Of a stretch of DNA of 64,000 bases, positions 1-9,713 are shown piece after piece (the first letter of the stretch is position 1; each line of letters starts with the position of its first letter). The DNA lies in the IMG/VR virus record IMGVR_UViG_3300023174_003073, positions 96,001-160,000 of that record; one strand, given 5' to 3'. A model generated the notes under the pieces. It was not told where the DNA came from. It searched no databases and was given only the letters and a program-made list of their open reading frames with translations. Both the position numbers and the translations under genes were made by a program. The stretch comes from a virus.

Positions 1-164
1 CATTTCAATTCAATAGAGTCATAGTTATCAACCATGTGCTTCATACGTTCAGCCGCATGTAATCCGCCACCACTTCCGTTTGTGACTACAAGGTCTTCAA
101 TGTGTTGGTACTTACGACCAACTGCAGGACCTGCGGCTTCAAGTAATAAATCACTTACTCTCAT
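1..164 (-). CDS. 5' part of an RNA-ligase-like phage protein (runs off the window start)
   Basis: Not in the ORF track. Manual translation from ATG at 164 gives MRVSDLLLEAAGPAVGRKYQHIEDLVVTNGSGGGLHAAERMKHMVDNYDSIELK(W). HIED followed by ELKW(DG) resembles ligase motif I (KxDG), but the DG lies outside the window. Confidence 0.55.
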   Translation of the reverse strand, partial: MRVSDLLLEAAGPAVGRKYQHIEDLVVTNGSGGGLHAAERMKHMVDNYDSIELK

Positions 165-849
165 TTTTTCTCTTATGTATAAATTGTTCAGCAATCATTA
201 CTAATTCATGTAATTCTTCTATACTTTCACAATGCCATCTACGAAGGCTTTTGTTAATATTACTATTTGGATCATGTGCAGTCTTAGCACTTGTACGATG
301 TTTCTTCATGCCCTTCATTCTAGCACAGAAACTTGCACGGCGTTTAGCACTCTTGCTACCTTTTTTCAATTTGCTTGGCTTTGTAGTAACAGCAGTTTGA
401 ATTTTACTACCGGGATGTTCTCTACGATAACTGTTAACAGATTTTTGACTCATGCCACCTGCTCTTGGATTATTGTGTTTACTCCAGTTCTCACCTTCAT
501 TCATGCCTTGTAATTCTTCTGCTGGCCAACTCATATAGCTGTTACCATTCACATCACCTGATTGTACAACAAACACACCCGGCTCGTCATCGTAGCCTTC
601 GTCTTGTCCAATTTCCCAACCTGCGGCTGCAAGAGTTTGTTCGATGCGTGGATCCTCATCACCGTGATACCACTGTGCAGCCATACGCTTGAGTGTTTCA
701 TCATCAAACCCATCGTCGCCGTCTCCGCCGCCAGGGGGTGCGAATTCATTTATGCCTTTAGGCTTTTGATGTTTTGCCTTCATTGCGATAGCAGTAGCAG
801 CCTGTTGTTTAGGGTTGGCTGCTTCAGTTATAAATTCATGCATTCTCAT
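151..849 (-). CDS. putative internal head protein (modular; C-terminal RRxSFCARM...SLRRWxC domain, DUF6321-like)
   Basis: N-terminus MRMHEFITE resembles the T4 capsid-targeting sequence MKTYQEFIAE. Internal INE/MNE sites and a basic C-terminal domain common in phages. Confidence 0.6.
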   Translation of the reverse strand: MRMHEFITEAANPKQQAATAIAMKAKHQKPKGINEFAPPGGGDGDDGFDDETLKRMAAQWYHGDEDPRIEQTLAAAGWEIGQDEGYDDEPGVFVVQSGDVNGNSYMSWPAEELQGMNEGENWSKHNNPRAGGMSQKSVNSYRREHPGSKIQTAVTTKPSKLKKGSKSAKRRASFCARMKGMKKHRTSAKTAHDPNSNINKSLRRWHCESIEELHELVMIAEQFIHKRKNESK

Positions 850-1607
850 TTTAACATCTCCATTGTTCTACGAAACCATTCGGTTACATTTGGTGTGGCT
901 TGCTGCCAACTATGACCGGCACGTGCCATATTCATAATTTCTTCTTTGCGTCTTTTGTCAGGTATCTTTGCCATAATAGATTCTACACTACCCAAGTCAG
1001 AACCTTTTGCACCTCTACCTAATAAGTATTGAGCAATCATATCCCAATCATCAGCTAATAAATCTGACTTTTTACCTGCCGCATCACGTTTGTATAAACC
1101 CTCGTCAGGACTCCATAACATACCTTGTGTACTAGCAAGTGCGTTCATCACTAGCTGTTTGTTAACACCTTTATAAGGACTACCTTGTGGAATTTCATGT
1201 CTGTGAAACTGTGCCACTTTATGAGCATTCTTAACAACTTTGATATCAACTTGATAAAACTTACCACTCATTGGTATTTTACAATGAACAGTTACACCTG
1301 CTAGTCTAGTTTCAATATTTTGTTTATTAAGAAAAGCTGCCAATGCTTTGCGAGTAGTTGATGAATCTGCTGTATTAAACTGTTGCATTAATGTAGTTAA
1401 TTCTACCATTGAATCTAAGTCATTTGATGGTACAGCATTTCCATTGGCATCGTAGCGTGGCTTCCAGCATGATCCAATAACCTCTAATGTGACGCCCAAG
1501 GGTTCTAGATATTTTTGTGTAGTTTCGCTTAGTGGTTTTCCGACAACAGACGGGTCAAAGTTAGTTTCAACGTCTGGCCAAATATTGCCACCTTCTAATA
1601 AAATCAT
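846..1607 (-). CDS. Pol-beta-superfamily nucleotidyltransferase (253 aa)
   Basis: Start moved to MILLEGG (ATG 1607, RBS AGGA, late promoter at 1631-1638). Motifs IGS...SNDLD...QVD. Confidence 0.6.
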   Translation of the reverse strand: MILLEGGNIWPDVETNFDPSVVGKPLSETTQKYLEPLGVTLEVIGSCWKPRYDANGNAVPSNDLDSMVELTTLMQQFNTADSSTTRKALAAFLNKQNIETRLAGVTVHCKIPMSGKFYQVDIKVVKNAHKVAQFHRHEIPQGSPYKGVNKQLVMNALASTQGMLWSPDEGLYKRDAAGKKSDLLADDWDMIAQYLLGRGAKGSDLGSVESIMAKIPDKRRKEEIMNMARAGHSWQQATPNVTEWFRRTMEMLK

Positions 1608-8829: not shown

Positions 8830-8846
8830 TCTCTATTTCCTTCTTA

Positions 8847-9713
8847 TTATGCTCTCAGTACTGGGGGAATACCCGCACGACTTATTTTACTTCCTAATTT
8901 CTTAGCATTCTGTTGCATTGTAAATGGAGTGATATCTACTGTTAATGCAGTCATCCAACGTCTATCATTCTTCTGACTTGGACTTGGAATATATCCACTA
9001 GACTCAGGCAAACTTAATCGTTGACTATGCAATAATTGTAATTTCTCGTATAATTTCTTAATTATACCTTTATTGCGTAATGCTTTAAATGCGATATTCT
9101 CAGGGCCAAATTCGCCATGAAAATCTAATCCAATTTTTCTGTATTTTTTAATGGTCTTGATTATTTTACTAATCTTTTCTGAATCATTCGACTTTAATGC
9201 ATACTGCGCTAATTTATATAGTTTACGATATTTTAATTTAGTTGCTAACTGGTCAAAGTCTGCTTTGCGTTTTCTTGGTAATTTCAACCATTTATCATTC
9301 ATTACTGAATATTCACCAAGACTGATTACGGGTTCGTTGCTATCCTGTACATATAATTCTACTTCATATCCATTAATTAATATATCGTGGCTATCATTAT
9401 AAACTGTCTTTTTAGCGTCAAATAATTCACGGTAAACATCATCTTCACTAAATTGTGAAATATCTACTAATATGTGTAAATCAATGTCGCTTAACTCAGT
9501 ATAGCTATAGGCTGCATTACTTCCAGAGACTGTGATATCTTCTATGGCTAAATCTGGTAATCCTAGATGTTCTATGAAGTCATTAGCAATCAATAATAGT
9601 TGCTCTCTGACATATCCTTTCATGTTATCCCCGTCAAATATGGCAGGATTTAGATGTTCATGGAAACGAACCGCGTCGGACATTTTAAAACTGTTTAACT
9701 CATTAAATTGCAT
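8847..9713 (-). CDS. Pol-beta-superfamily nucleotidyltransferase
   Basis: VSGSNAAYSYTELSDIDLHI (GS-x-DxD) and VELY; perfect TATAAATA 4 nt upstream of the ATG. Confidence 0.75.
   Translation of the reverse strand: MQFNELNSFKMSDAVRFHEHLNPAIFDGDNMKGYVREQLLLIANDFIEHLGLPDLAIEDITVSGSNAAYSYTELSDIDLHILVDISQFSEDDVYRELFDAKKTVYNDSHDILINGYEVELYVQDSNEPVISLGEYSVMNDKWLKLPRKRKADFDQLATKLKYRKLYKLAQYALKSNDSEKISKIIKTIKKYRKIGLDFHGEFGPENIAFKALRNKGIIKKLYEKLQLLHSQRLSLPESSGYIPSPSQKNDRRWMTALTVDITPFTMQQNAKKLGSKISRAGIPPVLRA

Follow-up and report, generated by a model that had tools for sequence, protein, structure and literature searches.

Leader-tagged late genes of a T4-derived jumbo phage, with a miniature family-X polymerase and a ligase-like partner as possible capsid-delivered cargo

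The internal proteins of phage T4 are a diverse set whose common feature is a capsid-targeting sequence (CTS) for loading onto the scaffolding core (PMC3012670); the letters of this sequence, MKTYQEFIAE, occur in PMC8442874. Among large DNA viruses, Phaeocystis globosa virus has a fusion of a family-X polymerase (Pol X) with a ligase (PMC5537341), and in cyanophage S-CREM2 virion mass spectrometry detected ORF154, annotated as a cytidylyltransferase, and ORF156 (PMC10665884). Here we describe a gene cluster at the start of a 64,000-nt stretch of viral DNA (the window), bases 96001–160000 of the linear, 170,986-bp IMG/VR contig IMGVR_UViG_3300023174_003073. A miniature Pol X-like gene, a ligase-like gene of the DUF6267 family and, just beyond the window, an HxGH nucleotidyltransferase (NTase) gene form its core, and most products of the cluster begin with a short leader resembling the T4 CTS. 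A sequence-only reading of the window had proposed a toolkit of head-packaged enzymes delivered with the DNA. Our analysis favours, with a probability of roughly 0.55, a cargo region, transcribed late, of a T4-derived jumbo phage whose tagged enzymes would be delivered with the DNA and whose core would fill and seal breaks.

All genes of the cluster lie on the minus strand. In the direction of transcription, from high to low coordinates, they are gene I and the genes for a 934-aa fibre-like protein, a 444-aa basic protein, a GP88-domain protein, a Dps-like protein and the 340-aa D protein, followed, after a 197-nt spacer, by those for the 253-aa Pol X, a 232-aa DUF6321 protein, the 387-aa DUF6267 protein and, outside the window, the 489-aa HxGH protein (Table 1). 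Pol X, DUF6267 and the HxGH NTase are the conserved core, linked by natural fusions, and the rest is a variable insertion. Pol X and DUF6267 are joined in one chain in the proteins P0104, P0105 and P0213 and in open reading frames (ORFs) of 651–652 aa in two complete phages of 345–353 kb; the fusions P0104 and P0105 keep the junction [VI]-N-E-A-A, which resembles an internal leader site. DUF6267 also occurs in the structure atlas fused to a cytidylyltransferase-like domain. In a relative whose Pol X is 73% identical, Pol X is followed by DUF6267 and then by a 608-aa protein; this relative has neither the DUF6321 gene nor the block 1805–11273, which lies between a 118-aa gene and Pol X. The pair of DUF6267 and the HxGH enzyme is further kept in Pelagibacter phage HTVC008M and Methylophilales phage Melnitz, adjoining UvsX and the replicative helicase, and some of the pair's proteins there have CTS-like N-termini, for example MKKFSEIIE/A (here and below, a slash marks the end of the leader). 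The gene before DUF6267 in these two phages (103767–104825 in HTVC008M and 12203–13288 in Melnitz) is not a Pol X; its product of about 355 aa has a D...SLK pattern, which suggests a PD-(D/E)xK nuclease.

The GS..DxD..D signature that had been noticed in the Pol X-like gene is fully conserved, with G45, S46, D63, D65 and D121 invariant in 36 homologs. Almost all homologs are about 253 aa long, and the start at 1607 is therefore taken as right. An AlphaFold2 model of the protein has a predicted local distance difference test (pLDDT) score of 90.9, and every top Foldseek match is Pol lambda or Pol beta (E of about 3e-7). Alignment with VIA places model residues 10–209 on residues 142–335 of Pol beta and 380–575 of Pol lambda, with Z 12.0–12.2 and a root-mean-square deviation (rmsd) of 3.2–3.5 Å over 172–179 residues, and the best 50 structural matches listed are all Pol X enzymes. 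An identity as a CCA-adding enzyme, CD-NTase or MNT, for which a Foldseek comparison had been suggested, was excluded by these top matches. In the model, the palm is contiguous with the nucleotide-selecting thumb (N) subdomain and begins directly after a 5-residue leader of the form M-x-[LI]-x-E, which stands ahead of an invariant GGNIW; there is no 8-kDa deoxyribose-phosphate lyase domain, helix-hairpin-helix or fingers subdomain, and the C-terminus is a 45-residue helical tail. The Pol X of African swine fever virus (ASFV) likewise consists of palm and thumb, without the 8-kDa lyase and helix-hairpin-helix domains, and the protein is therefore filed here as a minimal family-X (Pol beta/lambda-like) polymerase-like enzyme, as its model indicates. 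A search of cultured phages with the protein (tblastn) gave no match, and neither did a megablast search of them with window positions 1–10000; a review of jumbo phages makes no mention of Pol X. A minimal Pol X of a bacterial virus would join the ASFV enzyme as a compact model.

The partner encoded next to Pol X had been called ligase-like from its HIED and KW(DG) motifs. These motifs stand, and the comparison of 29 DUF6267 homologs revealed ten invariant residues (K54, D56, G57, E145, G146, G147, E354, G355, Y356 and K375), among them the motif I KxDG with its nucleophilic-lysine position, present as ELKWDG. Aligned by eye with T4 Rnl2, the KY..LEN element and motifs I (KIHG), III (FGEF), IV (EGYV) and V (KCK) of the ligase are collinear, and motifs IV and V are spaced by 21 residues in both proteins. 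The fold gives weaker backing than the motifs. Foldseek with the AlphaFold2 model (pLDDT 85) returned no match at E ≤0.1, with ligases filling the weak list; VIA matched REL1 (Z 5.2 over 184 residues), Naegleria RNA ligase (5.0–5.1), Trl1 (4.8) and the Chlorella virus ligase (4.3–4.4). The ligase matches, which include many DNA ligases, are weak (Z 3.5–5.2 over 145–187 residues, rmsd 5–6 Å) and make up about three-quarters of the best 50 VIA matches listed. The Pfam DUF6267 match covers only the N-terminal part of the 387-aa protein, and hhalign of the DUF6267 profile against T4 Rnl2 produced no alignment. Taken together, motifs and model make membership in the ligase superfamily probable. Sequence and profile searches of the PDB gave nothing significant with DUF6267, Pol X, the D family, GP88 or gene I, and we found no paper on DUF6267, which would gain an assignable activity if the reading is true. 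The structure atlas also holds a cluster of 65 viral proteins in which DUF6267 is fused to a Cu/Zn superoxide dismutase domain.

The targeting-like N-termini proposed earlier were confirmed on the contig. Starts of the form M[RK]xx[ED][FL] occur in 10 of 261 ORFs, compared with 0.6 expected from the internal frequency of the pattern, and about 14 genes carry a leader once the shortened forms (MILLE, MRLDE and MQFNE) are counted. Eight of these sit in 12 kb around the window start, out of 171 kb (binomial estimate of about 1e-6). The leader spans 5–10 residues, reads M-[RK]-x-x-E-[FL]-(I-T)-E or a shortened version, and ends in [LIF]-x-E; its best copies, MRMHEFITE/A, MRAYEFITE/A and MRATEFITE/S, are closely like the T4 CTS. 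When the degenerate DNA pattern for MRxxEFITE was searched in IMG/VR, 121 of 132 among the matches listed (at least 132) started ORFs of at least 80 aa; among these matches, nearly all read MRAxEFITE although position 3 had been left free, and the proteins behind them are mutually unrelated. Within each cargo family the leader is kept while its exact letters vary: an [LIVFM]xE site lies in the first 15 residues of 113/120 DUF6267, 114/120 Pol X, 116/120 GP88 and 122/150 D-family proteins. We found no paper describing the MRAxEFITE leader or a leader-tagged phage Pol X. Should packaging of the tagged proteins prove true, the leader would offer an easy way to predict virion cargo from metagenomic phage genomes. 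Elsewhere on the contig (32937–35051, minus strand), a 704-aa protein starting MRAYEFITEA combines GNAT, LysM and GH19 lysozyme/chitinase domains and is a candidate tagged, virion-borne cell-wall hydrolase.

A Peptidase_S77 (gp21-type) protease scores above the Pfam cut-off in 5/5 large leader-carrying contigs (191–353 kb, three of them complete). On the 171-kb fragment studied here, the Pfam models of T4 gp21 and gp23 detected no prohead-protease or capsid gene, and the protease is therefore inferred from the other contigs. Virion evidence comes from S-CREM2. Its ORF154 is 27% identical to the HxGH enzyme over 197 residues and starts MKNFSSFLTE/A, and its ORF156 (gp156) is 34.5% identical to gene I over 197 residues (E 2e-32).

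Late transcription is indicated by promoter-like motifs. ATAAATA is the core of the T4 late promoter TATAAATA. The contig contains 59 copies, 37 of which lie within 45 nt upstream of a same-strand start codon, where chance would give about 3.5%; these sites stand ahead of tail tube, baseplate and fibre genes and of the starts at 1607, 5969 and 9713. The copy ahead of gene I (about 9718–9724) stands 4 nt upstream of the gene, after a hairpin and then a T-run. This placement supports, at motif level, the late-promoter units of the sequence-only reading. Its structured element was rejected, since neither the 197-nt spacer nor its GC-rich core outperforms shuffled sequence in folding (z −1.2 and −0.3), and Rfam over window 1–10000, at gathering and E-value thresholds, gave nothing except one chance-level match. 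The promoter part is the only portion of the spacer that recurs elsewhere in the genome. The spacer (1608–1804, between the D gene and Pol X) has a much higher G+C content than its surroundings and is missing in the relative L138; it is possibly a leftover of a DNA insertion.

The variable insertion contains a second NTase, gene I, in which the earlier GS..DxD..D call is likewise sustained: the signature SGS...SDIDLH followed by VELYVQD is conserved, with G64, S65, D76, D78, E119 and D124 invariant down to 35% identity. Gene I matches phrog_36119 (1.5e-41), and 28/30 of its neighbouring clusters in the Atlas are NTP_transf_2; the Pfam NTP_transf_2 model scores it below threshold (15.2 bits against a cut-off of 21), and its top PDB profile match, a putative NTase, is weak (E 0.21). 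By these conserved residues, it is assigned to the Pol-beta superfamily of NTases. The family has a C-terminal tail (residues 236–288; loci L141–L151) of the form SGYIPS..NDPRW..AL..D..P..NAK..G.K..R.G.PPLLR, separated from the NTase core by inserts of variable length. GP88 also ends in ...LLLRH, and the two ends may represent a second shared module or signal. In relatives, the same two genes always precede gene I (window 9781–10722 and 10773–11273, minus strand); one product ends DYL[DE]EK, and the other, of 313 aa, has an N-tail that is rich in Lys/Ala and resembles histone H1, and a GT-A-like core (phrog_1574).

GP88 was identified by Pfam (PF17338, 89.9 bits against a cut-off of 24.4). Its C179, C185 and C189, forming the CX5CX3C motif, are invariant even in mycobacteriophage, Streptomyces-phage, HMO-2011 and archaeal-virus homologs of 25–31% identity; the motif on which an Fe-S protein had been proposed is thus real, and the Fe-S cluster itself stays putative. 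In mycobacteriophages the homologs lie in early or non-structural regions. We found no paper on PF17338. DUF6321–GP88 fusions exist. The DUF6321 protein (Pfam match 45.8 bits) has no recognisable enzyme domain, and its basic module is matched by proteins of cyanophage T4-GC119 annotated as 'structural protein'. The 444-aa protein matches phrog_16028, phrog_30733 and phrog_11180 and shares short C-terminal modules with DUF6321-type proteins. The 934-aa protein matches ten PHROG families, 8/10 of them annotated tail or tail-fibre. The Dps assignment holds (Pfam Ferritin 52.4 bits against a cut-off of 24.5; phrog_3636, 4.6e-31; weak NCBIfam Dps matches), and Dps was the only protein that NCBIfam recognised. 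The stretch does not amount to one enzyme set: besides the enzymes it contains the fibre-like gene and Dps, both leaderless, and two non-enzymatic basic proteins (151–849 and 4635–5969).

The D protein had been called zincin-like. Its domain, matched by 900 cluster representatives and found alone or C-terminally in proteins of 400–1222 aa, has the invariant pattern W..HRxxH...R...E, and Arg replaces Glu in H174-R175-x-x-H178 in all 42 aligned members. HRxxH rather than HExxH lacks the catalytic Glu that defines a zincin, and the call fails on this feature. The D protein has no Pfam, NCBIfam or PDB match, and Pfam on all 42 members gave no shared family; the Atlas offers a weak ATLF lead. The domain occurs fused to NTP_transf_2, DUF6782, GNAT, HD_4, Zeta_toxin and DUF5661. 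The only true HExxH in the operon is the HELVHH of the 489-aa HxGH protein.

Table 1 Genes and motifs of the cluster (window positions unless marked contig; a slash marks the end of the leader)
Feature	Position	Strand	Details
DUF6267 ligase-like gene start, first 54 codons of 387 aa	1..164; contig 95001-96164; P0123	minus	leader MRVSDLLLE/A, KYQHIED, ELK(WDG)
DUF6321 basic protein, 232 aa	151..849	minus	leader MRMHEFITE/A, acidic stretch, basic C-terminal DUF6321 module
Miniature family-X polymerase-like protein, 253 aa	846..1607	minus	leader MILLE/GGNIW; palm, thumb and C-terminal helical extension
ATAAATA late-promoter-like motif	1631..1637	minus	23 nt upstream of Pol X start, within 197-nt spacer
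D protein, 340 aa	1805..2827	minus	leader MRLDE/V; residues 58-340 are a widespread unnamed domain
Dps/ferritin-like DNA-binding protein, 146 aa	2836..3276	minus	without leader
GP88-domain protein, 416 aa	3388..4638	minus	leader MKITELYE/G; invariant CX5CX3C
Low-complexity basic protein, 444 aa	4635..5969	minus	leader MKISHLQE/N; ATAAATA 22 nt upstream, about 5992-5998
Tail-fibre-like protein, 934 aa	6025..8829	minus	without leader; 17-nt gap after gene I
Gene I, Pol-beta-superfamily nucleotidyltransferase (by sequence), 288 aa	8847..9713	minus	N-terminus MQFNE/L; C-terminal tail ending PP[LV]LR
HxGH nucleotidyltransferase and HExxH protein, 489 aa	contig 93535-95004, just outside window	minus	leader MRYTEFNE/A; N-domain phrog_3041; C-terminal HELVHH

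The contig is 43% complete according to CheckV. Its closest cultured relatives, identified via the tail sheath, are Sinorhizobium phage Phosso, Agrobacterium phage Atu_ph07, Pseudomonas phage PA5oct and Salicola phage SCTP-2 (35–46% identity), all of them T4-derived jumbo phages, and the window also carries tail tube, head-closure, sheath-stabiliser and fibre genes. A freshwater-2 RNA motif (Rfam RF02980, window 51623–51698, minus strand), scoring 50.7 bits and just above the gathering score, lies directly upstream of the ORF 50606–51625; this ORF and its paralogue 49377–50594 match no PHROG family. The motif and the sources of the homologs indicate a lake phage.

We propose that the leader docks each tagged protein on the scaffolding core of the prohead, where a gp21-type (S77) protease would cut after the leader Glu, and that the mature protein would stay in the head and leave with the DNA. 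The core operon would then supply a miniature Pol X for gap filling, the DUF6321 basic protein, the DUF6267 ligase-like protein and the HxGH NTase fused to a HExxH domain, and would most plausibly fill and seal breaks, either in the genome as it enters or in nucleic acid that the host has cut, ahead of phage gene expression. The HRxxH protein, GP88, the 444-aa protein and the second NTase would be swappable extra cargo in the variable insertion of about 10 kb, which also holds the untagged fibre-like gene and Dps. Delivery with the DNA is plausible, the indirect backing being the S-CREM2 virion proteome for two families. The delivered-toolkit idea of the sequence-only reading thus keeps its delivery part, which accords with the leader, the co-occurring protease and the virion homologs, and the RNA and signalling functions assigned to it fit less well, given that the first NTase resembles Pol X and has a ligase-like partner.

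Several observations weigh against delivery of a repair core with the DNA. The virion detection concerns a relative, S-CREM2, and the HxGH and gene I families, not Pol X or DUF6267, the latter being absent from S-CREM2. The leader pattern is missing from the nearest cultured jumbo relatives, PA5oct and Atu_ph07, as well as from the cyanophages S-P4 and P-SSM4. Pol X has a leader of just 5 residues and that of gene I has F-N-E, both being minimal or non-canonical, and the contig is a fragment without detectable gp21 or gp23 homolog. DUF6267 is only weakly ligase-like in fold (Z ≤5.2), and profile searches with it found no ligase. In HTVC008M and Melnitz the block lies beside UvsX and the gp41 helicase, a position that would be in keeping with a replication or repair role inside the cell as well.

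A different explanation, which we consider unlikely, is that Pol X, DUF6267 and the HxGH enzyme would be ordinary intracellular late enzymes that, for example, repair gaps and nicks in replicated or recombined concatemers before packaging. The shared N-terminus would then have a role other than encapsidation, such as helping translation to start, stabilising the protein or recruiting it to a site of assembly or replication. T4 needs nick sealing before packaging, and the UvsX–helicase neighbourhood, the contig's missing protease and capsid genes and the very short Pol X leader all agree with such a role. It accounts poorly for a tag that hundreds of mutually unrelated proteins retain and that closes with the T4 protease's [LI]xE site, for the S77 protease in all five contigs, for the homologs of two of the enzymes in S-CREM2 virions, and for a promoter-like motif that these genes share with tail genes.

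An injected toolkit for RNA or tRNA end repair, protein nucleotidylation or signalling, directed against host ribotoxins or CBASS- or Thoeris-type immunity, appears rather improbable to us. Structurally, DUF6267 comes closest, though weakly, to RNA ligases that seal nicks (REL1, Naegleria RNA ligase and Trl1), its motifs match those of T4 Rnl2 in order, gene I would by its sequence be a minimal NTase of the kanamycin-NTase/MNT kind, and the GNAT, HD_4 and zeta-toxin fusions of the D domain are typical of host-directed effectors. Against this stand the Pol X-like fold of the first NTase, with no CCA-adding enzyme or CD-NTase among the matches listed, an operon with no end-healing kinase or phosphatase partner, and profile scans in which no nucleotide-signal enzyme or sponge was recognised. 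Since a Pol X-like enzyme stands next to a conserved and sometimes fused ligase-like partner, gap filling and nick sealing fits the core better than RNA repair, signalling or decoy nucleotides, as judged from motifs and models.

That there is no functional unit at all, the toolkit being an artefact of reading together a hyperplastic region that gathers unrelated late genes like the T4 internal-protein locus, is quite improbable: the relative with the 73% identical Pol X but without the whole block or an in-operon DUF6321, the different conserved pair of neighbours with which gene I travels, the early or non-structural GP88 homologs and the leaderless fibre-like and Dps genes suit it for the variable part, where it is compatible with tagged cargo delivery, but it fails for the core, whose three genes are syntenic and repeatedly fused.

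Provided that packaging takes place, enzyme delivery with the DNA would go far beyond what T4 does with its three internal proteins and Alt, and the cargo would include a polymerase–ligase pair that could mend the genome on entry, ahead of the reading of any phage gene. As a tentative and clearly less secure generalisation of cargo delivery, large freshwater T4-related phages may preload their capsids with a break-repair kit, comprising a minimal Pol X, DUF6267 as an unrecognised family of nucleic-acid ligases and the HxGH NTase, and inject it, as a counterpart of the ASFV virion repair enzymes, with MRAxEFITE as a general, portable address label for dozens of swappable cargo enzymes.

Among the described systems, S-CREM2 has homologs of the HxGH enzyme and gene I in its virions, with a leader-like start in ORF154; it lacks DUF6267, the search of cultured phages turned up no homolog of Pol X, and the S-CREM2 paper contains no discussion of a targeting leader (PMC10665884). 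In T4, the internal proteins IPI, IPII and IPIII and Alt likewise bear a short N-terminal tag ending in (L/I)xE on unrelated late proteins encoded at hypervariable loci; the gp21-family protease of T4 has its counterpart in the five large leader-carrying contigs. The present locus differs in having more tagged genes, a polymerase, a ligase-like protein and NTases instead of small basic inhibitors, and an MRAxEFITE consensus, and its tagged proteins are putative cargo. Phaeocystis globosa virus and ASFV, which are large DNA viruses too, resemble this phage in joining a minimal Pol beta-like core, as a pair or a natural fusion, to an enzyme that seals nicks, here a putative one. ASFV combines its Pol X with a DNA ligase, and ASFV virions contain the repair enzymes of the virus. 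Compared with those viruses, the host here is bacterial, the partner is DUF6267 rather than a LigA-type or canonical ATP-dependent DNA ligase, no AP endonuclease lies nearby, and a T4-style leader is present. The giant phages SPN3US and phiKZ belong to an unrelated lineage with a different cleavage motif, and we know of no Pol X or ligase cargo described in them. In these two phages, a large head-internal mass of proteins, the ejection (E) proteins, is processed by a T4-type prohead protease (PMC5694885, PMC7411985). Polyvalent injected proteins of phages and conjugative elements have been discussed as well (PMC7824862); the D domain, which may act as an anchor, in processing or as an effector, and the 704-aa GNAT–LysM–GH19 protein likewise occur in multi-domain, effector-type chains, whereas most of the putative cargo described here is encoded as separate, individually tagged genes.

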